A DNA stretch of 41,337 bases, from positions 1 through 41,337 of the forward strand of contig PXPA01000011.1 of assembly GCA_003022255.1 (NCBI GenBank), given 5' to 3'. Position numbers and translations under genes: made by a program. Below the pieces are notes generated by a model that was not told the DNA's origin, searched no databases, and was given only the letters and a program-made list of their open reading frames with translations. Positions within the stretch are counted from its first letter, which is position 1. Each line of letters begins with the position of its first letter. Below, in pieces: positions 1 through 37,986 of the stretch. The stretch comes from Parcubacteria group bacterium SW_6_46_9. Its GTDB lineage: Bacteria > Patescibacteriota > Minisyncoccia > Phycocordibacterales > SW-6-46-9.

Positions 1-271
1 TTTCTACCGTACATTTTTTATGCACAAAAGCCGCCAGCCCGTACGGTTCTTCAATACTGGGACGGAAAAAGTGTTGATAGTCTTTAAGTGTCTGATCAAT
101 ATGACTAAGAATGTCCGGCATACGTTCTGGATCATCTAAACCTGCATCCGGTGAAAAATTGTTTACTTCCTGCAGACAAAATATATCAACCTCTTGCCGA
201 TACTGCTTGAAAAAATCTTTAAGCAAGTCAGGTTTTTTACCACCCCACACATTGAGCGTAAGTAATCTCAT
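1..271 (-). CDS. endonuclease/exonuclease/phosphatase (EEP) family protein, N-terminal part; the gene runs off the left edge
   Basis: Own translation of the minus strand from ATG at 271-269 gives MRLLTLNVWGGKKPDLLKDFFKQYRQEVDIFCLQEVNNF... The LNVWGG ... DIFCLQEV pattern is the N-terminal signature of EEP-fold enzymes. It is absent from the ORF track because the window edge truncates it. Confidence 0.6.
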   Translation of the reverse strand, partial: MRLLTLNVWGGKKPDLLKDFFKQYRQEVDIFCLQEVNNFSPDAGLDDPERMPDILSHIDQTLKDYQHFFRPSIEEPYGLAAFVHKKCTVE

Positions 272-986: not shown

Positions 987-2501
987 TTACAGCACAAGTC
1001 GCCAGACCGGAAAGTACGCCAAAAGAAAGTAGTAAACAATCGGTGCTGTCGCAATCGGCACAAAAAAGGCATAAGAAAGCGGGTTGATGGCTCCAATGAG
1101 CGCTTCGTTGTCGTGAGCATGATAAGCAATCCAACGCCAAAAAATTGGTACCAGCGGTATAAACCAGAGTAAAACCACTGTTCCCCATAACATCAGCATG
1201 CCACACACCGACAAGAGCACATAAAATGCTAAGAACAATTTGTATTTAGAAGATAGGCCGGAAGCAGTGCCGTATACAGCGTTTCCCCACCACCAGAACA
1301 CAGCACCACATACCACAACCAGAATTGAAAACACAAGTAGTGCCCGCGGCCATGCCCCAAATCCATCCGCATACTGCACAGGCCCACCACCTGCCACCCG
1401 CGTTGTATTAGCACCAACGACAACACCGTTTGGTAGGTGGGTGCGACCATTTTGCTCTACTGTTTCTGTATTAGTGGGGATAAACGTGCGATTACCGGTA
1501 ATGTTGGTTTGGCCTGAAATCCCGTCGGATTCGGTGTTATCAGACGTCACCGACGGGAACGTACTGTTTTGTTTGCTCTCCACCTGACCAACACTGTCCG
1601 GAAGCACCAGCAAGTCACTATCACGAGTAATATTGCGCGGCTCGTAGGAAACCTTGCTGAACGTGAGGTGTAAACCACCAGCCTGGCCGACATCGTGTAG
1701 GCCGGGAACACGAAGTAGATCAGACAATGAAACCATGCTTTTGTAATGCATGTCTGCACCGGCCAGCGCGAGAGCGGGCTGTGAAAGCGTATACAGCTCA
1801 AAACTTCGCACCTCATCAGTCGGCGCCTTCATACTATACATCGGAAAGAATGGTGAGTCGGACGCAAATGAGATCGATACCGGATCCGGCGTTGCTTGCT
1901 TAGATGCTGACCCGGACGATATTTTCAGCGCCACGAAGTGAAAGCCGTCTAGGTTGGTGTAATGTGATAGCACATCCTCACCGTCGGAGTTAAGCCGGTA
2001 GTCATTATCAGCCAACCATCCTTCTAAAAGTTGAGCTGAGTTCGCTCTTAGTACAGTAGCCGTATACGAACCCACCTGCTTCTGATTTACCACCTCTACA
2101 AACTCGTCACCCCGTGCGGCAGACCGTGTCCCCAGCGTCCGAAATGATGGCAAGGATGGTAAAGCGGTATCTACAAAGTCTGGCTTTTCGTAGCTAATAA
2201 CATCAGTAATGTGCTCGAAAATATTTTCCGGCCCAGATTGCACTTTTGGTTCAGCCGGAACGGGTATCACAGCGCCGAAGTCTTGCAGTTTTGTATCAAA
2301 CGATGGTTGTACAGTGAGCGTCTCGTGCTGGCCGTTGTACTCAAGTAGCCACTTGTTTGTGCCGTGGGTTATCTGCGATTCGCCTTTTGTCAGGCTTTTC
2401 ACAGCCGCTACTAATTCACCGACCTCGTCGTCACGGCTATCATGTCCGGCAGTAGTGGTGCTGTCCGATGTAGATGAAAATAAGAAAATATTGTGCATCA
2501 A
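987..2501 (-). CDS. large envelope protein: soluble N-terminal region plus a polytopic C-terminal membrane region (possibly DUF2330-like)
   Basis: 504-aa ORF. The last ~130 aa are hydrophobic segments (LLVFSILVVVCGAVFWWW, LFLAFYVLLSVCGMLMLWGTVVLLWFIPLVPIFW, VPIATAPIVYYFLLAYFPVW). The family assignment is from memory only. Confidence 0.6.
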   Translation of the reverse strand: MMHNIFLFSSTSDSTTTAGHDSRDDEVGELVAAVKSLTKGESQITHGTNKWLLEYNGQHETLTVQPSFDTKLQDFGAVIPVPAEPKVQSGPENIFEHITDVISYEKPDFVDTALPSLPSFRTLGTRSAARGDEFVEVVNQKQVGSYTATVLRANSAQLLEGWLADNDYRLNSDGEDVLSHYTNLDGFHFVALKISSGSASKQATPDPVSISFASDSPFFPMYSMKAPTDEVRSFELYTLSQPALALAGADMHYKSMVSLSDLLRVPGLHDVGQAGGLHLTFSKVSYEPRNITRDSDLLVLPDSVGQVESKQNSTFPSVTSDNTESDGISGQTNITGNRTFIPTNTETVEQNGRTHLPNGVVVGANTTRVAGGGPVQYADGFGAWPRALLVFSILVVVCGAVFWWWGNAVYGTASGLSSKYKLFLAFYVLLSVCGMLMLWGTVVLLWFIPLVPIFWRWIAYHAHDNEALIGAINPLSYAFFVPIATAPIVYYFLLAYFPVWRLVL

Positions 2502-3929: not shown

Positions 3930-5346
3930 ATGTCAACCGATACCGTAACCCGTTGGCCAAACCGCTGGGTCTTCATTCTTGCTGCCGTTGGTTCGGCGGC
4001 CGGATTAGGAAACATCTGGCGATTTCCCTTTCTTGCCTTCGAGCATGGCGGAGCTGCGTTTGTTCTCGTGCTCATTCTGGCGACACTCATTGTTGGTTTG
4101 CCACTTTTAACCTTAGAAACCGGGCTCGGACAGAAAACAAAAATGGCTGCTCCGGCCGCTTTGGGTAGTATCAAAAAACCGTTACGTCTTGTCGGCTGGA
4201 CCGCGCTTGTGTTTTCCTTTTTTGTGATTGCTTATTACATGTCTGTGCTTGGCTGGGGGGTTGATTATCTGGCCAGCTCATTTGATCTGCTGTGGGCACA
4301 GGAGACCAGCTCGTACTTTTTTGATACTGTCTTGAACATTAGCGAAAGCCCCGGATCAATTACCGGCTTTTCCTGGCCGGTTGTGGCTGGTTTTGTTATC
4401 AGCTGGATTCTTGTCTACTTTTCTGTCTGGAAAGGTGTAGAAAGTGTCAGCAAAGTGGTTATCTGGACGGCAACACTACCGATGGCATTGCTTGTTATCC
4501 TACTTGTTCGCGCCGTGACACTTCCCGGTGCTGGGGCCGGCGCAAGTATTTTTCTCGCTGTCTTTGGCCTTTGGGATTATGATCGCTTACAGCAGCTACA
4601 ACGCGGATACGGCTCCGGTACTGGCAAATACCGTCTGGATTCTTATCGGTAACATTATCGTGAGCCTTCTCGCTGGCGCCGCCGTCTTTGGCACCTTAGG
4701 GTACATGGCAGCAGAGCAGGGAACCCAAATTGCCGAGGTTGTGGCCGGCGGACCATCACTAGTGTTTGTCGTTCTGCCGGAAGCGATATCCTTACTGCCT
4801 GCTTTCTCAAGCCTGTTTGCCGTCGCCTTCTTTGCCACGATTGTCATGCTGGGAATCGACAGCGCCTTCTCAATCCTGGAAGGTATTGCCGCTGGGTTCA
4901 AGGATGCCCTCCCTAATCTTTCCGTAAAAAAAGTTACGCTAACACTCTCTGCTGTTGCTTTTGTTGCCGGCCTGCCTTTCGTCACCGATGGTGGCTTGTA
5001 TCTGCTTGATACACTTGATCACTTTACAATCAACTATGGGTTAGTGGCAATCGGTGCACTGGAGGCCGGGATTGTCGGCTGGCTGTATGAAGATGAGCTC
5101 AAAGCGTATATCAACAAACGTTCAGGCTGGCAGGTGGGAAACCTGTGGAGCATAGCTTTAAAGTATGTGATTCCGCTGTTTTTGGCTGGTTTGTTTATCG
5201 TGAATACGTATCAGGAACTGCAGGCGCCGTATGAAAGCTATCCTGTCTGGCTACTACTTGCTGTCGGAGTTATTCCGGTTGCGCTAGCACCAGGCATTGC
5301 TTATCTTGTCGATTATCTCACATTCCAAAACGCAGAAACTGAGTAG
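3930..5346 (+). pseudogene. sodium:neurotransmitter symporter (SNF/NSS) family transporter, disrupted by a frameshift and a probable small deletion near 4528-4560
   Basis: ORF 3930-4652 has WPNRWVFILAAVGSAAGLGNIWRFPFLA. ORF 4528-5346 has AQVFFSLSLAFGIMIAYSSYN. These are consecutive NSS motifs in two frames. About 20 aa normally lying between TLPGA and QxFFSLS appear to be missing. Confidence 0.7.
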
Positions 5347-6214: not shown

Positions 6215-7507
6215 TTAGACAGTGAGTTTCTGCTTCGTGCGACCGGACGTGCCAAAAATATCCTTGAACCACTCGGCTCGTTCTCCGCCCTGCGCTTTCT
6301 CGGGGTTGTCAGACAGCTTAACCGTCTTCTTGCCAGCCGCTTCTGTCACTTTGATCACCACCGAAAACGGCTCGTAGCCGGGATCATGCGTCCGTGGCCA
6401 GACACCAGCACAGTTGTTAGTGAGATTCGTGCCGATACCAAACGTGTAAGTACCGACCTTGTGTCCGTGCTGTCTGTACAAGTTATTGACTCGTGTAGGG
6501 GTCAAACCATCACTGGGGATCAGCGTCCTATCCTGAGGATCAACACCGTGATCCTGCCACCAACTGATCACCTCTTCGGTGGCAACATCCGGATCCTTTG
6601 AGTCAAGACGCACTCCTTGGCAGTCTTCGGCCATCCACGCAGGGGCATTCTCAAGGAACTGGCTTGTGCCGAACGTATCCGGAAGCAGTACCGAAAGCTC
6701 TGGATAGATCTCATGCCAGCGTTTTACCACCTCATACTGCGACCGCCGGACCTCTTCGGGGTCATCATGTTCCGTCAGATTTGCTGCGATCATCGGCAGT
6801 TCATGCGCATTGGTCCCAATCGGATTACTGCTTCCCTGCTGTTTAGCCAGATAAACATTCGAGGTTCCGATGTACTGCTTAGGCAATTGCTCAGCCAGAA
6901 TATCCAGCACCTGCCTCTGGTGCTGAAAGCTATGACGGCGCCTAGTGCCGAAGTCGGCAAACGTCAGATCATACAGACGCAACTCCTCTACTGTAGACAA
7001 TGTTCGCTCAAGCATCCGGCCGTACAGACCCACAAACAATGAGTAGTAATACAGCTCCGATATAATCGGTAGCGCAATCGTCTCCCAGTAGGTTACTTCC
7101 TTCCAGGGGCCAGAAAAGGAAAGGTCAAACCGACCGTCATCAGTTACCTCCAGGTCATACTCAGGAAGCCGGAAGTCAGACAAAAAGTCGATATACGCAT
7201 CGCCAAACAAACGACCGCCGTCAAGTGGCAAACCACGCAGGTAAGCAAGCTCCGACGGCTGAAACCGCAAGTCCCGGGCGGCATCAAGCTGTTCGCGAAG
7301 CTGTGCTGGCGGGATAACCTCGGCCAACCGCACGTCATCCGACCGGACAGTCAGCGAGAACGTAGTCTCTGTGTCCGCCCAGTCATCGTACGTGTTGATG
7401 AACTGACCCATCGTGAACTTGTACATATCCGTGTCCAGAAGACTCTGGATAATCGGTTCATCAGAAGCTGGTGCAAATACGTCAGCAATGTTAAACAGAT
7501 TGCTCAT
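6215..7507 (-). CDS. pncB: nicotinate phosphoribosyltransferase
   Basis: The track ORF is 6215-7669. The likely true start is ATG at 7507 (MSNLFNIADVF...IIQSLLDTDMYKFTMGQ, the classic PncB N-terminus). Also present are FADFGTRRRHS and GTSNVYLA...GTNAHE. Confidence 0.85.
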   Translation of the reverse strand: MSNLFNIADVFAPASDEPIIQSLLDTDMYKFTMGQFINTYDDWADTETTFSLTVRSDDVRLAEVIPPAQLREQLDAARDLRFQPSELAYLRGLPLDGGRLFGDAYIDFLSDFRLPEYDLEVTDDGRFDLSFSGPWKEVTYWETIALPIISELYYYSLFVGLYGRMLERTLSTVEELRLYDLTFADFGTRRRHSFQHQRQVLDILAEQLPKQYIGTSNVYLAKQQGSSNPIGTNAHELPMIAANLTEHDDPEEVRRSQYEVVKRWHEIYPELSVLLPDTFGTSQFLENAPAWMAEDCQGVRLDSKDPDVATEEVISWWQDHGVDPQDRTLIPSDGLTPTRVNNLYRQHGHKVGTYTFGIGTNLTNNCAGVWPRTHDPGYEPFSVVIKVTEAAGKKTVKLSDNPEKAQGGERAEWFKDIFGTSGRTKQKLTV

Positions 7508-12340: not shown

Positions 12341-12377
12341 TAAGTAAGTGTAAAAACAAAGTGGACACGAGTACTTC

Positions 12378-12392
12378 GTGTCAATATTACAC
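12378..12392. promoter_or_regulatory. second copy GTGTCAATATTACAC; its reverse complement matches the first site at 14/15 positions
   Basis: The centre-to-centre distance to site 1 is 52 bp. A 7-bp hairpin gacacga-gtact-tcgtgtc overlaps its left edge. Confidence 0.45.
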
Positions 12393-12417
12393 TAACAAAC
12401 TGAGCTTAGTGTGCAAG

Positions 12418-13107
12418 CTACAATAACTCTATAGTACGGATTTCATTATTTGTAAAGCGGTACAGCATAGCCGGTCGATGCGGTCCGTCCGTCTTCTTCT
12501 CGCCCGTTTCCTCTAAAGACAACTTCTTTTTGATTTTCCGGCGGAAGTTACGTTTATCTAGTTGTCGTCCTAAAATTTCCTCATACGTATCCTGCAGTTG
12601 CGTTAATGTAAATTTTTCTGGTAACAGTGTTTTTGTTATATTCGTATACGTTAGTTTTGCCTGCAATCTGTCCACAGCAGTATCAAGAATCTTGTTGTGG
12701 TCATACGCTAGTTTGCCAATATCTGCCACTGGCTTCCAGAATGACCGGCCATCATCGGCAACGGTGAGCTTAGTCGGCGGTGCTAATGCTAAATACGCGA
12801 CTGATACTACTCGACCACGTGGATCTCTGTTAACACCACTAAACGTATATAGTTGCTCTAAATGCGTATGATCAGGATTCATACCCCCCTTCTCTTCAAG
12901 GTGGCGTCGAGCCGAATCTTCGGCGGTCTCGGTTGGGTCAATTAGTCCGCCTGGAAACCCGGCGATATCTGTATAGTGTGGTGGTGTATGTACATCAATT
13001 AGCAGCGTTTGTAGCTTGTCTTCATAGACAGCAAACAGCACCGTGTCCGTAGCCAGTACAGCAAACTGCAAATCTTCCTTGTCGGATGTTTTGTTGTCGT
13101 CGGTCAT
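12418..13107 (-). CDS. nrtR: NrtR-type regulator (Nudix domain plus C-terminal winged helix)
   Basis: It has a degenerate Nudix box (GFPGGLIDPTETAEDSARRHLEEKGG), RDPRGRVVSVAY, LAYDHNKIL, FTLTQLQDTYEEILGRQLDKRNFRRK and HRPAMLYRF. This matches the NrtR family pattern as I remember it. An alternative upstream start exists at 13152. Confidence 0.75.
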   Translation of the reverse strand: MTDDNKTSDKEDLQFAVLATDTVLFAVYEDKLQTLLIDVHTPPHYTDIAGFPGGLIDPTETAEDSARRHLEEKGGMNPDHTHLEQLYTFSGVNRDPRGRVVSVAYLALAPPTKLTVADDGRSFWKPVADIGKLAYDHNKILDTAVDRLQAKLTYTNITKTLLPEKFTLTQLQDTYEEILGRQLDKRNFRRKIKKKLSLEETGEKKTDGPHRPAMLYRFTNNEIRTIELL

Positions 13108-17884: not shown

Positions 17885-18003
17885 CAGCTTTCCTCGCGCA
17901 GGAGGTGGTTGGTGTAAAGAACAAATGCAAGGTTAGTATAACCCTCCCAGTTTCTCGTTGCAACTTACATACAGAAAGCGGTTCGAACTTCTCGTGTGTA
18001 TTG

Positions 18004-18076
18004 GGTGCCTGCCCGGATTTGAACCGGAGCCGCGGCCTCCACAAGGCCGTGTGCTAACCGCTACACCACAGGCACC
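18004..18076 (-). tRNA. tRNA-His (anticodon GTG) with an encoded G-1; CCA not encoded
   Basis: The reverse complement is ggtgcctgtggtgtagcggttagcacacggccttgtggaggccgcggctccggttcaaatccgggcaggcacc. The anticodon stem is cggcc/ggccg and the loop is ttGTGga. An extra 5' G faces C73. Confidence 0.9.
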
Positions 18077-20458: not shown

Positions 20459-20880
20459 TGCTCAGGGTGGGAACCTCACGTAGACATAACTTCTTTTGAA
20501 ACCAGAGTGGGATTCCTCTCCAGTCAGCTGCCTGACGGCAGCTGCTTCCGAGCCGGACCTCGCCGTCTTCGCCTTCTCGCTTCGCCCCTCACATGGATTC
20601 GTTACATAACTTTGATGAAAAACTTTACAGCTTGGTACCCATCAATGGTCCATGCGAGGGGCTTCGATCAAAACTCAGACATGGCTGCGGCCTTCGAATC
20701 CCACAAAAACATGCATAAATGCATGTTTACCTAGCTATATTATAAGCAAGTACCGAGCTAAGGTGCTTAACTTGTAAGTGCCTTAGCTCGGTTCCTCGGA
20801 AAAGAGAGGCAGTGAGCGAGAAATCGCGCGAACGTCAGAAGATGAGTCGACGAAAGGGTTTTTCTCTCCGAGCCCTATTG
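20459..20880 (-). repeat. non-coding island downstream of tRNA-Leu, ending in a degenerate copy of the tRNA-Leu 3' end (20459-20475); contains the f-module of the tRNA-linked repeat family and two long hairpins
   Basis: 20459-20475 tgctcagggtgggaacc compares with tRNA-Leu 20881-20894 tgcccagggcggga (12/14). On the minus strand, gattcgaaggccgca, atgtctgagtttt and gacggcgaggtccggctcggaagcag parallel the Arg- and Val-linked copies. Hairpins lie at 20707-20728 (10-bp palindrome plus T-run on the minus strand) and 20752-20792 (12 bp perfect, extendable to 18 bp). Confidence 0.6.
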
Positions 20881-20965
20881 TGCCCAGGGCGGGACTCGAA
20901 CCCGCATGCGCGTAAGCGCGACGGCCCTCAACCGCCCGTGTATACCAAGATTCCACCACCTGGGC
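20881..20965 (-). tRNA. tRNA-Leu (anticodon GAG), class II with a long variable arm
   Basis: The reverse complement is gcccaggtggtggaatcttggtatacacgggcggttgagggccgtcgcgcttacgcgcatgcgggttcgagtcccgccctgggca. The anticodon stem is ggcgg/ccgtc and the loop is ttGAGgg. Confidence 0.9.
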
Positions 20966-20973
20966 ATCGGCAT

Positions 20974-21639
20974 TCATAGCTGCATATCCACTTTAGCTAA
21001 TGCTTCTTTGATTTTCAACCGCTTTCGTGAAAGGTACGTAATATCATTAGAGTGATACATATTTCTTAACAAATTCATAGACTCATCTTTTGCGTATTTA
21101 AGTTTATAAACCTTACTATTTTTCGATTTACAAATATGTCCACGAATATCAATAAATTTGTTTATATTCTCTCGTAGCCAGTCGATATGGTCTTCACTGG
21201 CTGAATTAAATACGGTATAAAACATATAACTAGATTCCCAGCGCTTATCCCAAAAGCTGTAAAAACAACCATCCCCATCAAAAAGACCGCGTAAAAAATC
21301 AAGAAAATACTTATCGGGAATATCGATTGACCCAATTGTTTTGGACTTGGCAGTTGTCAGCCCAATGTCTTCTAAAAAAGAATAAAACAGCACATCACCA
21401 AACTGAACTCTTCCACATCTTCCACCCCTGCCGTTCTCTTTTTCAGATATTTTTACATGCTCTATATCTAAACATCTCACAAAGTTTTCTAGCTGCTCTT
21501 CATCTTGAGAAGTAAAATCGAGATGCCTGCCATTACTTGAAAGACATCCATCGGCTGTAAAAAGCCCGACTGCATATGCAAAATCAGGAGACCAGGTAAT
21601 ATCAACTACTCCTTTGGGTTTTGGGCCAGGTTTTGCCAC
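20974..21639 (-). CDS. free-standing double-motif LAGLIDADG homing endonuclease
   Basis: There are two LAGLIDADG-type motifs, FAYAVGLFTADGCL and FLRGLFDGDGCF, about 100 aa apart. The stop codon is 8 nt upstream of the tRNA-Leu 5' end on the same strand. Confidence 0.85.
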   Translation of the reverse strand: MAKPGPKPKGVVDITWSPDFAYAVGLFTADGCLSSNGRHLDFTSQDEEQLENFVRCLDIEHVKISEKENGRGGRCGRVQFGDVLFYSFLEDIGLTTAKSKTIGSIDIPDKYFLDFLRGLFDGDGCFYSFWDKRWESSYMFYTVFNSASEDHIDWLRENINKFIDIRGHICKSKNSKVYKLKYAKDESMNLLRNMYHSNDITYLSRKRLKIKEALAKVDMQL

Positions 21640-23908: not shown

Positions 23909-23948
23909 TTGATTTTTATCAAATAAATAGTAGAATAAGAATGTATTT

Positions 23949-24052
23949 GGGCGGTTAGCTCACCCCAAGAGTACTTCTTCGTCAGTAAACTGACTCAGGG
24001 CGCAGCTGGCAAGTTTGCCAGCTTCGCTAACCACTTTTTAAAATTTAACTAT
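23949..24052 (+). repeat. exact copy of tRNA-Val nt 1-14 (23949-23962), followed by the repeat-family core (b-module, 23961-24006) and a 9-bp hairpin
   Basis: gggcggttagctca is identical to 24053-24066. The core is caccccaagagtacttcttcgtcagtaaactgactcagggcgcagc. The hairpin agctggcaa/ttgccagct lies at 24004-24023. Confidence 0.7.
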
Positions 24053-24125
24053 GGGCGGTTAGCTCAGCTGGTAGAGCGTCTCGTTTACACCGAGAATGTC
24101 GTAGGTTCAAGTCCTACACCGCCCA
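24053..24125 (+). tRNA. tRNA-Val (anticodon TAC)
   Basis: The sequence is gggcggttagctcagctggtagagcgtctcgtttacaccgagaatgtcgtaggttcaagtcctacaccgccca. The anticodon stem is tctcg/cgaga and the loop is ttTACac. Confidence 0.92.
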
Positions 24126-24311
24126 CAACGAACAAAGTGAAAAGTGAGTTGTGGCGGTGAGCAAGCAACTTTCTTTGCTTGCATTCGGGCTTGAAAGCCG
24201 CAACTATATCTGAGTTTGCCAAGCTCTGCTTGGCGGGGCGTAGATAGTGAGGCTCGGCGCGAAGGCAAAACTCGTCAGAGTTTTGACCGAAGAGAAGTCC
24301 TACACCGCCCA
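24126..24311 (+). repeat. hairpin-rich tRNA-Val trailer (e- and f-modules), ending in an exact 20-nt copy of the tRNA-Val 3' end plus flank
   Basis: 24295-24314 aagtcctacaccgcccacaa equals 24109-24128. The trailer start caacgaacaa...gagttgtg parallels the tRNA-Arg trailer caacgagcaa...gagttgtg. atatctgagttt at 24206 is shared with 25594. Confidence 0.7.
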
Positions 24312-24321
24312 CAAATTCAAA

Positions 24322-24348
24322 AACAGCGTCCATTCGGGCGCTGTTTTT
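24322..24348 (+). terminator. rho-independent terminator after the tRNA-Val unit
   Basis: The stem is aacagcg/cgctgtt (7 bp) with a 10-nt loop, followed by TTTTT. Confidence 0.7.
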
Positions 24349-24359
24349 ATATTAGATGT

Positions 24360-24601
24360 TTAGATGTGTAGGACTCGAACATGGAAAGGGGGCGGGAAAA
24401 CTCCAGTTTTCCCGTGTTGGAAAGCAGTCCGCCGCAGGCGGACGTTGAGAACCGTGGGATAAAACAGAACCTTCTTTCTGTTATATCCGATTCTGCTCTT
24501 GGCGGAAATTTCGAATGTCGAATGTAATGAGACAAGAAATAGGAGGCCTCGAAGAGGTTAAAACGCAGGAGCGAAGCGACGAGTGGTGAGGGTCCTACAG
24601 C
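24360..24601 (-). repeat. inverted member of the repeat family, bounded by inverted tgtaggac / gtcctaca ends
   Basis: The left end is tgtgtaggactcgaac, the reverse complement of a T-arm/acceptor-like gttcgagtcctacaca. The right end is gggtcctacagcacaca. 24565-24595 gcaggagcgaagcgacgagtggtgagggtcc matches the type-B core seen at 33455-33493 and 36830-36870. Confidence 0.5.
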
Positions 24602-24696
24602 ACACACAAATTTTGTTTAAACAATCAAAGAAAAAGGCTCTGCCCGAGAGAGCGGACAGAGCCTGTAGTCGTCCCTGAGTGACAGAGACCGAGAGG

Positions 24697-25323
24697 TCAA
24701 AATGTTCGGGCTAACCCGAACTGGAAAAAGAATTCTTCCTGAGTGATCTCGTACTGTGTTCCGACAATCAGCCCGGTTTTGTTGTTGATTGAATGAGTGT
24801 ATTTTACACCCACCTGCTTAATGATGTAATCAACAGGCTTAAAGTCAACCAACGCAGCACTGAGCGTGAACGGACCTGGAGTGTAAAAAGCCACTACACT
24901 CCGAGCAAAAAACTCCGGACTCATTTCAAATCCAGATTCTTGTGTACCGGCTGACCATTCATGCCAGAGCCATACAGTTAAATTGTCGATCGGGTGGAGG
25001 TTAAGCCGAACCCCGCTCCACGGCACACCGGAAAATTGCCCAACGTTACCCGATATTGTCATCCAGCTTGTTACCGGGTATGTGCGGACGAAGTAAGCTC
25101 GCTCAGAATTGCCTTGAAGCGCGAACCAGTTGCCGGGCTGCTCTTTTTGGTACGTCCAGCGCACATCCAGCCCAGACGTGATAACTCCCGTACCGAAAGT
25201 GACTACTCGAGAACTCAATTCAAACCCACCAACCTCCTCCGGAGCTACCTGGGCAATGGTGTTACCAGGAAAGCTGAGGAAAGCGAGTGCGAGAAAGCAG
25301 AACAAAAAGCAACGAGGATTCAT
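24697..25323 (-). CDS. secreted protein with beta-strand periodicity and a C-terminal Phe (outer-membrane beta-barrel-like)
   Basis: Likely start is ATG at 25323. The signal peptide is MNPRCFLFCFLALAFLSFPGNTIAQ. The mature ~185 aa show alternating hydrophobic patterns and end in FFFQFGLARTF. Confidence 0.55.
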   Translation of the reverse strand: MNPRCFLFCFLALAFLSFPGNTIAQVAPEEVGGFELSSRVVTFGTGVITSGLDVRWTYQKEQPGNWFALQGNSERAYFVRTYPVTSWMTISGNVGQFSGVPWSGVRLNLHPIDNLTVWLWHEWSAGTQESGFEMSPEFFARSVVAFYTPGPFTLSAALVDFKPVDYIIKQVGVKYTHSINNKTGLIVGTQYEITQEEFFFQFGLARTF

Positions 25324-25534
25324 TGGAGGGTGCTCAGTTGTGAAGGAAGATAACGAACCCTGAACTATGTAAATATTAATACATATAAGCATAATAGTCA
25401 AACTAAACACGTGTCGCTTTCCGCTGGTTTTACATTACTCTCAACCACTAAAATCGCTCCGATGCAGCACTACATTGGCTAAATCTAGTTAGAATGCTTA
25501 TGCCAAGCGTGCTTTAACCAGATGAGCGTCTCTT

Positions 25535-25694
25535 GGGGGTAGAACTTCACTCTAAGAGTATCTCCTCGTCAGCAAGCTGACTCACAGTACAGCATATCTG
25601 AGTTTCAGCTTTGCTGAAGCCGAGGACGACGGGGTGCAGGCTACGAAATTTCTGCATCGAAAGCATTATTTGCAGTCGAATCCTACACCGCCCA
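25535..25694 (+). repeat. contiguous 160-nt copy of the repeat family (degenerate 5' tRNA-like piece, b-core, f-module), ending in a 15/16 copy of the tRNA-Val 3' end
   Basis: The start is gggggtagaacttca. The core is cactctaagagtatctcctcgtcagcaagctgactcacagtacagc. The middle is atatctgagtttcagctttgctgaa..., and the end is tcgaatcctacaccgccca. Just upstream, gagcgtctc equals tRNA-Val nt 21-29. Confidence 0.65.
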
Positions 25695-25787
25695 CCAATT
25701 AATACTTAAGCATTTTTGTTTGATTATATTAGCGTAATATTACATAATATTTTTGTGTCTGTTCCTTTCATAAGAACTTATTCTGAT

Positions 25788-26150: not shown

Positions 26151-26171
26151 TTTCGGGAAACATATAATATC

Positions 26172-26214
26172 AGTGTGCAACACTTAGTCAGTGTGCAACA
26201 CTTAGTGTTGCACA
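26172..26214. repeat. 18-nt tandem duplication agtgtgcaacacttagt(c/g) x2, overlapping a perfect palindrome tgtgcaacac-tta-gtgttgcaca
   Basis: Read directly: 26172-26189 and 26190-26207 are identical at 17/18. The palindrome arms are 26192-26201 and 26205-26214. Confidence 0.6.
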
Positions 26215-33080: not shown

Positions 33081-33184
33081 ATATTGTTATTATACTCATT
33101 ACACAAAAATAAAGCAAAATAAAAATAACTGCGGATCTCGGTTTCTACCGAATACACTTTCCGGATAAAGACTCTCTGCAACCA

Positions 33185-33604
33185 ACTACCTAACGGGAAC
33201 TGCTTTCGAGTCGGGCCTCGATACCGTCGCCCTGTCCTTCTACAAGCTCATGACAGACTTGGATATACTGTGCTGTGAGTCAGATTACTAACGAGCAAAT
33301 ACTCTTGGGGTGCACCCTTCGATTCCTGACGAATATCGCAGTAAATACTAGCAGGAATCCCTTACGGTAAATCGGCTAACGCCGATTTCCTCCAGACCGA
33401 GCCTCGATATCCTCGCCTTGTGCTCACCAGGCTCGCACAAACCCGGATATATCTGTGCTGGGAGCGAAGTGACCGAATACTCGTGGGGTGCGGCTTTCGA
33501 TTCCTAACGAACATGCAAAACTGTACTAGTAGGAATCCTCTTCGATTCCTACACGAACGCACCAAACGGTGCGTTCTCGGAGTCACAACTCGCGTTGCTC
33601 GTTG
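33185..33604 (-). repeat. tRNA-Arg trailer (e-module) followed by two tandem copies of the repeat family
   Basis: The cores are 33270-33314 (gtgctgtgagtcagattactaacgagcaaatactcttggggtgca) and 33455-33493 (gtgctgggagcgaagtgaccgaatactcgtggggtgcgg). Two 9-bp hairpins are gaacgcacc/ggtgcgttc and gtaggaatc/gattcctac. The orientation is co-directional with tRNA-Arg. Confidence 0.65.
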
Positions 33605-33676
33605 TGCCTCCGGTAGGAATCGAACCCACATCTACGGGTTAGAAACCCGGTGCTCTATCCGTTGAGCTACGGAGGC
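33605..33676 (-). tRNA. tRNA-Arg (anticodon TCT)
   Basis: The reverse complement is gcctccgtagctcaacggatagagcaccgggtttctaacccgtagatgtgggttcgattcctaccggaggca. The anticodon loop is ttTCTaa. Confidence 0.9.
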
Positions 33677-33865
33677 AGTACTTCGCCCCTCACCCAGACT
33701 GTAATCTAACATACAAAATTTTGAATTCGTAACAAGACAACGATAACAATCTGGGTGAGGGGCTGCTTTCCTTCACCAAACCACGGAAAGCAAAACAATA
33801 GCGCACAACCTACTTGCCCTCCCGTAGCTTGAATAAAATGAAAGCGAAGGTGGGCTACGGAGGCA
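33677..33865 (-). repeat. tRNA-Arg leader: exact copy of tRNA-Arg nt 1-11 plus its 1-nt 5' flank (33854-33865), its complementary partner, and a 13-bp long-range hairpin
   Basis: gctacggaggca at 33854-33865 equals 33666-33677. The partner gccctcccgtagc lies at 33816-33828. The hairpin cccctcacccaga (33686-33698) pairs with tctgggtgagggg (33750-33762). Confidence 0.6.
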
Positions 33866-37248: not shown

Positions 37249-37986
37249 GGCTCTTGAGTAGAACAGCACTTCTAAGTGCTAACATATCCCTATATGGAGC
37301 CGAAAAACAAGTATGCATACCGTTCAAAGCTTTCCGAGTACCAAGTACGCCGAATTATGAAGCTCTTTGCGCTGGATCTGACCGCTACACAGATGGCAGA
37401 ACTAATGGATGTCGGCCGGAAGACGATAAACCGGTACCTTAAGGCAGTTCGGGGGCGGATGGCGCAAGCCTGCACGCAAGAAGCCAAGCTGGTTGGTGAC
37501 GTAGAGGTGGACGAAAGCTACTTTGGCCCAACCCGAGTCCGGGGCAAACGTGGACGCGGAGCAGCAGACAAAACACTCGTATTCGGCATGTTCAAACGTG
37601 ACGGGAATGTCTACACAGAGATCGTACCGGACGCTAAAAAACCGACGTTGCAAGGCGTAATTCGGGGTAACGTTGACCAAGACAGCGTAATTCACTCGGA
37701 TGGCTGGCGTGGCTATGACGGCCTAGCGGATGTTGGCTACGAAGAGCATGTTAGAATTACTCACAGTGAGGATAACTTCTCGGATGAAGACGGCACGCAC
37801 ATCAACGGTATTGAAGCCTTCTGGGGTACGGTAAAGACACGACTGACCGCTCGCCGTGGTATTCGTGATGAATACTTGCACCTGCACTTGAAAGAATGCG
37901 AGTTTCGATTCAACCACAGAGACGAAGATCTATACAAAACATTACTAGAATTAGTTCGAGAAAATCCGCTGTTCTACTCTTGAGCC
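37249..37986 (+). mobile_element. IS1595-family insertion sequence (738 bp) with 19-bp imperfect terminal inverted repeats and a 7-bp target-site duplication
   Basis: IRL at 37249-37267 is ggctcttgagtagaacagc. The reverse complement of IRR at 37968-37986 is ggctcaagagtagaacagc (17/19). The flanking direct repeat TTGTTAA lies at 37242-37248 and 37987-37993. Confidence 0.85.
37276..37983 (+). CDS. IS1595-family (ISXO2-like DDE) transposase
   Basis: 235-aa ORF with an N-terminal HTH (TATQMAELMDVGRKTINRYL). VEVDESYFG...RGRG...K..VFG...R.G.V...IV.D......L...I......VIHSDGWRGYDGL...GY.H..I.H is the ISXO2-like transposase pattern. Confidence 0.85.
   Translation: MLTYPYMEPKNKYAYRSKLSEYQVRRIMKLFALDLTATQMAELMDVGRKTINRYLKAVRGRMAQACTQEAKLVGDVEVDESYFGPTRVRGKRGRGAADKTLVFGMFKRDGNVYTEIVPDAKKPTLQGVIRGNVDQDSVIHSDGWRGYDGLADVGYEEHVRITHSEDNFSDEDGTHINGIEAFWGTVKTRLTARRGIRDEYLHLHLKECEFRFNHRDEDLYKTLLELVRENPLFYS

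Follow-up and report, generated by a model that had tools for sequence, protein, structure and literature searches.

The window analysed here is a stretch of 41,337 nt from contig PXPA01000011.1 of Parcubacteria group bacterium SW_6_46_9, a chromosome piece of a candidate-phyla-radiation (CPR) bacterium that has rplS, ddl, a Mur ligase gene, pilM and sodA among its genes. ARAGORN locates four tRNA genes in it: tRNA-His (18003-18075(-)), tRNA-Leu(GAG) (20880-20965(-)), tRNA-Val(TAC) (24053-24126(+)) and tRNA-Arg(TCT) (33604-33676(-)). Our subject is the tRNA-Val gene and the pieces of it that lie on either side. The gene is complete and canonical (Rfam tRNA model, 72.8 bits), has a G3-C70 acceptor pair and does not encode CCA, A73 being followed by CAA. 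It is the resident, intact gene, and the flanking fragments are the terminal, tRNA-derived repeats of two independent small insertions. The downstream insertion belongs to what is apparently an undescribed family of folded non-coding elements, called type A here, that lie behind many CPR tRNA genes; no description of such elements was found in the literature.

Two independent insertions flank an intact tRNA-Val gene

An earlier note on this DNA, made from the sequence alone, had described an intact tRNA-Val between copies of its own two ends, and both ARAGORN and the Rfam tRNA score bear out the intact inner gene. The 3' repeat that it reported, AAGTCCTACACCGCCCACAA at 24295-24314, is an exact 20-nt copy of 24109-24128, for which zero chance matches are expected. 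The 5' repeat, given as GGGCGGTTAGCTCA at 23949-23962 and equal to tRNA nucleotides 1-14, is in fact 15 nt long: positions 23948-23962 are identical to 24052-24066 (tRNA nucleotides -1 to 14), the T at -1 being common to both copies, and the two exact matches compare with 0.1 expected by chance. A third copy of the 3' repeat, with three mismatches, is found at 25678-25697. Since nucleotides 15-56 are missing from the outer pieces, these do not make up a second tRNA, as the note had also said; a split, permuted or intron-containing tRNA gene was rejected on the same ground and on the completeness of the canonical inner tRNA.

Filled and empty sites were then compared among relatives, whose loci are designated by L numbers. 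The closest contigs (L003, L004 and L005), which were found through the neighbouring 200-aa protein, share with the window the whole upstream part, comprising promoter, 5' fragment, a module termed M, hairpin and tRNA-Val, and differ downstream. The upstream insertion also occurs in the distant L024, where the fragment is exact and a downstream element is lacking. It is absent from L022, L025, L027 and L030, the last three of which carry downstream elements, and L022 has neither insertion at tRNA-Val. Because the upstream insertion occurs alone in L024, the downstream one alone in L025, L027 and L030, and neither in L022, the two flanks represent independent events, and the upstream fragment is a separate, older insertion of mirror-image design. 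This does away with the single nested 363-nt unit that the note had envisaged.

The same distribution bears on the proposal that the outer fragments are the remains of an original tRNA-Val gene into which a single cassette brought a replacement tRNA. The 5' fragment does lie at the native promoter distance, and the native terminator follows the 3' fragment, as this proposal would have it. However, the flanks are separate in relatives (L024 versus L025, L027 and L030), downstream cassettes have been reordered independently of the upstream part, and the inner tRNA is the orthologue of the syntenic tRNA-Val in the fragment-free L022. We regard a replacement tRNA, contradicted as it is by the independent occurrence of the two flanks, as hardly credible. 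Repeated site-specific insertion is the alternative in the note that comes closest, since both outer fragments are terminal repeats and the 3' flank of tRNA-Val is a variable cassette array in relatives; its tRNA-derived terminal repeats stand, but its premise of one unit fails.

The upstream insertion amounts to 89 nt at D-loop position 14/15, accompanied by a 15-nt duplication of the tRNA start, and contains module M, a hairpin and its own promoter-like site. Its outer end is the direct copy of tRNA-Val nucleotides -1 to 14 (TGGGCGGTTAGCTCA, 23948-23962(+)), which stands 12 nt behind a promoter-like site (TTGATT-16-TAGAAT, 23909-23936(+)); this spacing equals the native tRNA-Val promoter-to-gene spacing in L022. 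The fragment is exact in L024, has one mismatch in L003 and L004 and two in L005, where it follows the G6->C change of the local tRNA. Module M (23963-24006(+); 44 nt, CCCCAAGAGTA...GTCAG-nnnn-CTGAC...CAGGGCGCAGC) runs into a 13-bp hairpin (24000-24027(+), arms 24000-24012 and 24015-24027, GCGCAGCTGGCAA/TTGCCAGCTTCGC) followed by ...CTTTTT, which may act as attenuator or terminator of the upstream transcript. The 3' arm of the hairpin contains the -35 box of the next promoter-like site (TTGCCA-18-TAAAAT, 10/12 matches, 24015-24044(+)), which lies 8 nt before the intact tRNA and is conserved in L003, L004 and L024. Fragment nucleotides 5-11 (GGTTAGC) are predicted to pair with GCTAACC at 24030-24036; in L024 the partner reads GCTAATC and the pair is kept as G-U. 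A decayed remnant of a duplicated tRNA-Val after module M (24007-24052) was considered and rejected, 440 of 500 shuffles aligning as well.

Insertions of this mirror-image kind are not confined to tRNA-Val. A copy of tRNA-Arg nucleotides -1 to 11 (TGCCTCCGTAGC) lies upstream of that gene at 33854-33865(-), with an inverted copy (GCTACGGGAGGGCA) 25 nt beyond it, and at tRNA-Ser(TGA) of L027 a 29-nt 5' duplication takes in part of the promoter, the insert holding a type-A-like core piece.

Module M was itself found elsewhere. Two further copies in the window (25550-25593 and 33267-33310(-)) lie inside elements of the long type described below, and by local BLAST the 5' block recurs behind tRNA-Arg at 33262-33312(-). 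The module is about 44 nt long, with ends CCCCnnGAGT...ACTCnnGGG, a central hairpin and (T)GCA flanks, and it occurs in both orientations at unrelated sites: in the tRNA D loop, in type-A cores, in the hairpin loop of another element and in element tails. Relatives carry it at about 600-645 in L024, 6860-6895 in L022 and 8730-8775 in L027, and it stands in reverse orientation in other genomes; a strict 31-nt pattern gave no match in metagenomes. By analogy, module M behaves like a very small mobile insertion.

The downstream insertion has a conserved fold

The downstream insertion, wA, comprises 186 nt (24129-24314) between tRNA-Val and a terminator. It begins with a conserved linker (24129-24147(+), starting CGAACAAAGTGA...; family consensus (A)ACGAACGAAGTGAG), which in type-A elements starts 2-5 nt past the discriminator. 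Next comes a segment that we term the anti-acceptor (GTTGTGGCGGTG, 24148-24159(+)), complementary both to the 3' strand and trailer of the tRNA (CACCGCCCACAAC) and to the element's own tail; its duplex with its own tRNA is worth -20.8 kcal/mol, against a mean of -12.2 for other tRNAs. After an 8-bp hairpin, H0 (24161-24182(+)), follows the core (24187-24294(+)), made up of GAAAGCCGCA, P3/P4 (ATATCTGAGTTT plus a hairpin), GAGGCTCGG and a P6 hairpin with a CGTCAG loop. The core opens with the P1 5' strand (GGGCTT, 24187-24192(+)), complementary to T-loop nucleotides 57-60 and the start of the T stem, and is predicted to form two arms, P3/P4 with tandem G-A loops and P5/P6, on a three-way junction closed by P1. 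C/D-box or kink-turn motifs were dismissed for the internal loops, the G-A tandems being symmetric. The tail (24295-24314(+)) is an exact copy of tRNA-Val nucleotides 57-73 plus CAA, and its first 6 nt supply the P1 3' strand.

Behind the tail, a terminator-like inverted repeat with a T-run occupies 24319-24348(+). The earlier note had placed a terminator after the outer 3' fragment, and this is what we see, although a simple terminator scan does not list it. In L003 the same sequence (ATTCAAAAACAGCG...) directly follows the tRNA, so that it represents the native tRNA-Val terminator, displaced by wA. The hairpins that the note named are likewise present, 24000-24012/24015-24027 and H0 among them.

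The predicted fold of wA has an energy of -74.2 kcal/mol (z = -4.6), with the anti-acceptor/tail helix formed. A covariance model, R1, was built from seven copies and run on loci fetched via L19 homologues; wA scores 124 bits with it. RNAalifold on a plain MAFFT alignment of the seven copies returns 44 pairs, 25 of them with compensatory changes. When 17 copies are aligned to the model, 93% of cells pair, compared with 33-44% when partners are slid by 1-3 columns; both sides have changed in 35 of 43 pairs, the covariation score is 0.51, where slid partners give 0.06-0.08, and none of 500 shuffles reaches the observed values. This alignment, being fitted to the model, leans towards structure, and the independent MAFFT result agrees with it. 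All eight pairs of H0 covary across the family. Conserved U-G pairs (12 of 13 at one position) indicate that the tRNA-sense strand is the one that folds.

No family in Rfam 15 accounts for the fold. In the tRNA-Val region, cmscan, one of the checks that the earlier note proposed, matched the tRNA only, and with Rfam 15 wA and the copies in L009 and L027 found no family, only chance-level hits at E <= 10. A tmRNA (transfer-messenger RNA), Y RNA, group I intron or self-cleaving ribozyme was rejected for want of any Rfam or ARAGORN match; ARAGORN finds no tmRNA in the window.

Such a fold raises the possibility that type-A elements are host-functional non-coding RNAs, co-transcribed by read-through from the tRNA promoter. 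In one variant, the closing helices (anti-acceptor/tail and P1) would imitate the acceptor/T-arm helix, so that RNase P, RNase Z and the CCA enzyme excise or stabilise the RNA; in another, the antisense segments and the sense tail would compete with acceptor pairing of the tRNA and affect its maturation. The Y-shaped core would bear the actual function, for instance protein binding. Several features suit this account: the strong covariation across distant CPR lineages and the stable folds (z = -4.6), the usual lack of a terminator between tRNA and element with one after the tail, and the abundance of the elements in very small genomes. In L005, moreover, pair 6:67 of tRNA-Val has switched from G:C to C:G, and the 5' fragment and the tail have followed the switch; the anti-acceptor has not. 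The perfectly paired P1 of wE5, the element behind tRNA-Leu in the window, points the same way despite a tail that differs from the present tRNA-Leu. The outer 5' and 3' fragments could pair with each other, as the earlier note had considered, but this pairing is degraded in L003 and L004 (G3->A); given the element segments complementary to the tRNA 3' end, the precursor may nevertheless adopt some form of alternative pairing. The evidence on the other side is taken up below.

Type-A elements are matched to the neighbouring tRNA

wA matches the model, lies just 3' of a tRNA on the same strand, ends in a tail that copies this tRNA and has the conserved fold, and these are the features by which we assign elements to type A. 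A 24-nt core pattern retrieved further copies behind tRNA-Ser(GCT) in L006, tRNA-Ile in L007 and tRNA-Tyr in L009, a metagenome-assembled genome (MAG) of Candidatus Saccharibacteria, and each ends in a copy of the 3' end of its adjoining tRNA. The matches in L008, L010 and L011 (3/4 genome matches) were set aside as chance, falling inside open reading frames (ORFs) or unrelated spacer. Four matches in viral contigs were not upheld by the covariance model, a phage database search returned tRNA-Val matches only, and a search with neighbouring proteins in species genomes gave no relatives. With R1, members were found in relatives behind tRNA-Leu (L005, L016, L023), tRNA-Arg(TCT) (L024, L027), tRNA-Ser(TGA) (L027) and tRNA-Val (L025), together with a variant behind tRNA-His of L024 and a divergent copy behind tRNA-Pro of L007. 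Type-A elements thus stand behind Val, Leu, Arg, Ser, Tyr, Ile, His and Pro genes, with looser look-alikes behind Asp and Gly genes, in Parcubacteria, Paceibacterota and Saccharibacteria-type MAGs. They are about 150-190 nt long.

Three parts of the element are matched to the local tRNA, namely the linker just after it, the segments complementary to its 3' end and the near-exact tail. In 11 of 14 elements the tail is the end of the element's own tRNA, 13-21 nt being exact or nearly so, whereas against other tRNAs the score is about 6; in the other three, the tail contains inserts or the end of the model is shifted. Across 16 elements, linkers pair better with the 3' end and trailer of their own tRNA than with those of other tRNAs (Wilcoxon p = 8e-5). 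P1 and the local T arm covary, as in GATGACT/AGTCATC at tRNA-Arg of L024, GGAATC/GATTCC in the tRNA-Arg array of the window and AGAGTTG/CGACTCT at tRNA-Leu of L016. A census of 41 tRNA genes at 17 non-redundant loci, scoring copies of a gene's own end of at least 11 nt within 450 nt, was entirely one-sided: copies of the 3' end lie downstream of 15 of the 41 genes and, as a control, upstream of none, and copies of the 5' end lie upstream of 6 of the 41 and downstream of none.

These tails invite comparison with retroelements resembling short interspersed elements (SINEs). A bottom-strand nick at T-loop position 56/57 would prime reverse transcription, and a second, imprecise nick would duplicate the stretch from nucleotide 57 to the end. 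The T-loop junction at 56/57 is indeed precise and the other variable, the duplications ranging from about 12 to 45 nt; the polarity suits target-primed reverse transcription for the 3' elements, and the tail is always the local tRNA's sequence. However, no reverse transcriptase is found in the scanned ORFs of the window, the elements lack a 3' tail, whether A-rich or of another kind, and no CCA was added post-transcriptionally, CCA occurring only where relatives' genes encode it; on this last count retro-origin from a mature tRNA was rejected. The polarity is wrong for the sense-oriented 5' insertions, and the inverted copies matched to each tRNA are left unexplained. Such an origin seems very improbable to us.

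In the window, the R1 scores fall from 124 bits for wA to 86 for wE5, 46 for E4b and 28.7 for E2. wE5 lies behind tRNA-Leu(GAG) (20497-20879(-)) and has a long linker of about 150 nt (20729-20879(-)) with two long hairpins, together with a large insert of about 80 nt in the P4 hairpin (inside 20560-20660(-)); tRNA-Leu of L025 is followed by a long spacer similar to this linker. The wE5 tail, GAATCCCAC, matches tRNA-Leu of L005 better than the window's own. The array behind tRNA-Arg(TCT) (33126-33603(-)) consists of several units: a linker with the anti-acceptor GTTGTGACTCCG (33578-33589(-)), an H0 (33556-33575(-)), a core-less unit (33529-33554(-)), the long-type E4b (33346-33508(-)) and a tail-less long-type element, E4c, from 33330 downward. 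Long-type copies (E2, E4b and E4c) carry module M between GCA and ATATC.

E2 (25535-25697(+), E ~1e-5) is the stretch that the earlier note had read, at 25535-25694, as a contiguous 160-nt copy of the same element lacking an inner tRNA. It is related, but the likeness to the tRNA-Val region holds only in blocks (47 nt at 77% identity, 25547-25593 versus 23960-24006; 12 nt exact; 17 of 20 tail positions). It proves to be a degenerate long-type member of the type-A family, not an empty form of a 363-nt unit. It ends in GAATCCTACACCGCCCACCA, which corresponds to the 3' end of a tRNA-Val gene that encodes CCA.

Unrelated cores share the same design

Behind wA and the terminator lies a second element, E3 (24366-24609(+)), whose core differs from that of type A. 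Its 5' strand (GTGTAGGACTCGAAC) copies the T loop and T stem in inverted orientation, and the element ends in the tail GGGTCCTACAGCACACACAA. Elements of this type B, with the core GAAAGGGTCGGAAAAC...GTTGAGAACCGTGGGTTC..., also occur behind tRNA-Val in L003 (922-1063) and L030 (644-781) and behind tRNA-His in L025 (13352-13495); in each, 14-16 nt of the 5' strand repeat the local T loop and T stem in inverted form, and the tail copies the tRNA end. Relative to L003, the window's E3 has an extra insert of about 95 nt (~24465-24560). Yet other cores of similar design are found at tRNA-Gly of L007 and tRNA-Asp of L006. The general pattern is a tRNA end (S), an inverted copy (S'), a core and a direct copy of S. 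In type A the order is S, linker, inverted copies of S (anti-acceptor, then P1 5' strand), Y-shaped core and direct copy, the last spanning T-loop nucleotide 57 to 2-5 nt past the discriminator.

Could this pattern be a by-product of replication errors? Snap-back and template switching at the quasi-palindromes of tRNA genes would yield direct-inverted-direct triplications of the ends, the interior being incidental and free to drift. The S-S'-S arrangement at both tRNA ends, with several unrelated cores, would fit, as would the perfect 14-16-nt inverted T-arm copies in the type-B and L007-Gly elements. Yet the same core, linker and H0 recur at at least nine tRNA types in distant lineages, with compensatory changes, and drifting incidental sequence would not keep 93% pairing, which makes this origin very improbable.

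Further downstream, a 237-aa ORF (24697-25410(-)) has no Pfam match and a hydrophobic N-terminal stretch. A tRNA-Val tail copy stands on either side of the ORF, which has promoter-like and terminator-like sites of its own, is followed by E2 and is absent from L003, L004 and L005. The segment 24610-25697 may be a larger, ORF-carrying cassette with the 237-aa ORF as cargo.

Elements turn over among relatives

The order behind tRNA-Val differs from genome to genome. In the window it is tRNA, A (24129-24314), terminator and E3 (24366-24609); in L003, tRNA with CCA, terminator, E3' and A'; in L004, tRNA and A''; and in L005, tRNA and A. The A-type tail variant CCTACACC and the E3-type variant CCTACAGC are each kept in the window and in L003, so the tail travels with its cassette. 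At the rplS-tRNA-Leu locus, L016 has a subtype ending ...GTGACC with an exact 19-21-nt tail, L023 another subtype ending ...GCTGACGCC with an exact 20-nt tail, L022 a 5'-truncated element and L024 a linker remnant only, while L027 and L030 have no element. The Val element of L004 is closer to the Leu element of L016 than to the Val element of the window. In L027, the Ser and Arg elements are near-identical from the H0 loop to GAGCCGGGGT and different outside, and this confinement to one tract indicates gene conversion. Type-A elements are thus gained, lost, reordered, arrayed and gene-converted.

Several observations weigh against a host-functional RNA. A given tRNA may have an element in one genome and none in a close relative, and truncated, core-less and tail-less copies exist. 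A terminator separates tRNA and element in L027-Arg, L007-Pro and type B, and tails are interrupted by inserts of 14-45 nt (L027-Ser, L022-Leu, L005-Leu). That several unrelated cores share one S-S'-core-S design speaks for a common mode of origin, not a common function. We hold a host function to be the main rival, and a doubtful one.

The interrupted tails deserve description. The L027-Ser tail (1407-1450(-)) contains a 14-nt insert, GCCTGCCCGCAGGC, and inserts of 35-45 nt resembling module M lie in the Leu tails of L005 (~212-260(-)) and L022 (~6850-6900). With such short hairpin inserts, these tails cannot all serve as tRNA 3' parts.

Two near-identical strains differ directly behind tRNA-Leu (L028 10899-12500 versus L027 10901-11730): L027 has a folD-like gene there, and L028 has two ORFs of no known identity and then a type-A element (12364-12494) that adjoins no tRNA. 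L005 is to be used with care: between the upstream insertion and tRNA-Val it has a run of N (2945-2954) and then a duplicated acylphosphatase/promoter piece, which is probably a scaffolding artefact due to repeats.

A free-standing LAGLIDADG homing-endonuclease gene (20974-21639(-)) separates rplS from tRNA-Leu, with 9 nt between its end and the tRNA. It is also inserted in the Paceibacterota MAG L025 (10703-11368) and in L026, and is absent from L005, L016, L022-L024, L027 and L030. The T arm of the window's tRNA-Leu differs from that of the closest relative, and to judge from the sequences the tRNA may have been co-converted when the gene landed beside it.

The elements may be cassettes mobilised in trans

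The reading that we favour, with a probability of about 0.45 and hence a little short of even odds, is that the elements are trans-mobilised cassettes that recombine at tRNA ends. Read in this way from sequence comparison, a cassette would enter or leave the end of a tRNA gene by recombination between its own S copy and the tRNA end, and because of this proposed exchange the tRNA would stay whole. On the tRNA-sense strand, S would pair with the inverted copies and so rebuild a duplex image of the target, a folded image that would resemble the single-strand sites of integron attC or CTX-phage attP. The mobilising enzyme would be encoded elsewhere in the genome and act in trans. Once inserted, elements would be transcribed with the tRNA, and their later evolution would involve tandem duplication, deletion between S repeats and gene conversion between copies. 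We count in favour of trans-mobilised cassettes the exact, non-random repeats, the independence of the two insertions, the covarying fold of the family, the tails and linkers matched to their own tRNA, the one-sided census, the reordering, truncation and core-less or tail-less arrays, the different subtypes at one tRNA-Leu site, the tract that the Ser and Arg copies of L027 have in common, and the ORF and E2 between tail copies in the window only.

Insertions that duplicate a tRNA end are already known. In tRNA-targeting phages, genomic islands and cis-mobilisable elements, the identity segment of the attachment site stretches from the T loop to the 3' end, and its duplication is a hallmark. 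The elements described here resemble these in that a direct repeat from T loop to 3' end brackets the insert, the tRNA is left intact, tandem arrays and variable content lie behind the tRNA, and the outermost copy has the ancestral CCA. They differ in being 150-300 nt long and mostly non-coding, without an integrase, in their inverted target copies and conserved covarying fold, in using one homologous core at many tRNAs, and in their mirror-image counterparts at the 5' end of the tRNA (D loop). Pfam scans of window ORFs showed no tyrosine or serine integrase, and the inserts do not have the length to encode such an enzyme.

Integron attC and CTX-phage attP(+) are folded single-strand recombination sites. 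The elements resemble these in that structure is conserved above sequence and cassettes form arrays, sometimes with an ORF. In the proposed reading, one strand would fold so that imperfectly paired inverted segments rebuild a duplex site, and the enzyme would act in trans; S/S' complementarity specific to the own tRNA and G-U pairs that mark one strand are what is observed. In contrast to an integron, there is no intI, attI or Pc, no integrase being present in the scanned window ORFs, and unlike attC the elements lack R''/L''/L'/R' boxes and the GTTRRRY core. Their 5' strands read GTGTAGG, GTTAGGA, GTCAGGA and GTGGGAT, and their junctions do not fit RYYYAAC/GTTRRRY. The tRNA end would take the place of attI, the core fold greatly exceeds the S/S' site in size, and no sign of excision was seen.

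Likeness to miniature inverted-repeat transposable elements (MITEs) and SINEs lies in short, non-coding, multi-copy units with decayed and nested copies and flanking duplications of variable length, and module M is like a MITE of about 44 nt in both orientations. Here, however, the inverted repeats copy the target, not the element ends, and the targets are exclusively tRNA loops or ends. We know of no partner transposase or reverse transcriptase for tRNA-end elements. A miniature element of the IS200/IS605 type or an omega-RNA was rejected, the distance from tRNA end to H0 varying from 11 to 36 nt and a long duplication being present; neither a Y1 nor a TnpB domain is found in the scanned window ORFs. 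Also discarded was a role as guide RNA of a TnpB/Cas12-type nuclease, with a scaffold, a 3' guide and GGTT as protospacer-adjacent motif: such a guide would be directed against the locus that encodes it, P1 ties up its first nucleotides, and there is no effector.

Several points weigh against trans-mobilised cassettes. Pfam scans of the window ORFs of at least 150 aa reveal no recombinase, reverse transcriptase or HUH gene; an IS1595-family (ISXO2-like) DDE transposase ORF (37276-37983(+)) is the only transposase detected in the window and is unrelated to the elements. No excised or circular form was seen, only filled and empty orthologous sites across genomes. For an element to adopt a new tRNA type, three of its segments have to change together, which the model does not explain. 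The deep covariation of the core away from S/S' exceeds what a recombination site needs and fits an RNA with a function of its own. Every pattern of gain and loss could also have arisen without dedicated mobility, if ancient elements were lost, crossed over unequally or underwent gene conversion. The sample, about 20 elements from about 17 non-redundant loci, many of them in related genomes, is small. The cassette and functional-RNA readings are not mutually exclusive.

Known tRNA-like and large structured RNAs provide further yardsticks. Bacterial Y RNA (YrlA) is a tRNA-like non-coding RNA (PMC4201824). With tmRNA, YrlA and mascRNA the elements have in common an acceptor-like helix formed from 5' and 3' parts, a 3' strand derived from the T arm and a large non-tRNA domain in between, and processing by tRNA enzymes is plausible. 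They differ in that neither Rfam nor ARAGORN gives a match, that a complete T arm, a tag ORF and G3-U70 are missing, and that many copies are present per genome, each of which takes the acceptor sequence of its neighbour tRNA. GOLLD and ROOL are large structured RNAs of 500-800 nt, mostly in prophages and often beside tRNA genes, without copied tRNA ends. Like them, the elements are structured, are of no known function and are associated with tRNA genes, sometimes with nested tRNAs, but they do not match the GOLLD or ROOL models in Rfam.

A bolder proposal, which we consider unlikely though by no means negligible, is a new class of tRNA-coupled RNA, either a two-state transcript or an RNA that guides its own insertion at tRNA genes. 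Each copy may be tailored, carrying an antisense image and a sense copy of the 3' third of its neighbour tRNA. In the two-state version the transcript could form either a normal tRNA and a closed element or a tRNA with a folded domain of about 190 nt at the T-loop elbow (56/57). Either behaviour, if true, would have no described bacterial precedent.

Other features of the window

The sodium:neurotransmitter symporter (SNF) gene (3930-5346(+)) is split into two overlapping ORFs (3930-4652 and 4528-5346), whereas L024 has a single gene of 499 aa; the split may reflect a frameshift, a pseudogene or a sequencing error. Between two other ORFs, at 26170-26214, an 18-nt sequence (TCAGTGTGCAACACTTAG) is present twice in exact tandem and overlaps a 15-nt palindrome; the arrangement looks like an operator.

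Implications

If the interpretation is correct, tRNA genes in the tiny genomes of CPR bacteria would be docking sites for many miniature folded non-coding cassettes, each bearing a copy of its target tRNA's end and sparing the gene itself. The same loci are also visited by homing-endonuclease genes and by modules of about 44 nt. The covariance model can be run across all CPR genomes, and co-occurrence could identify a partner enzyme. The elements would explain many of the stray tRNA fragments in CPR assemblies, and would warn against labelling these as pseudogenes or assembly errors. To bacterial biology they would add either a small mobile element of a new kind or a novel tRNA-coupled RNA.

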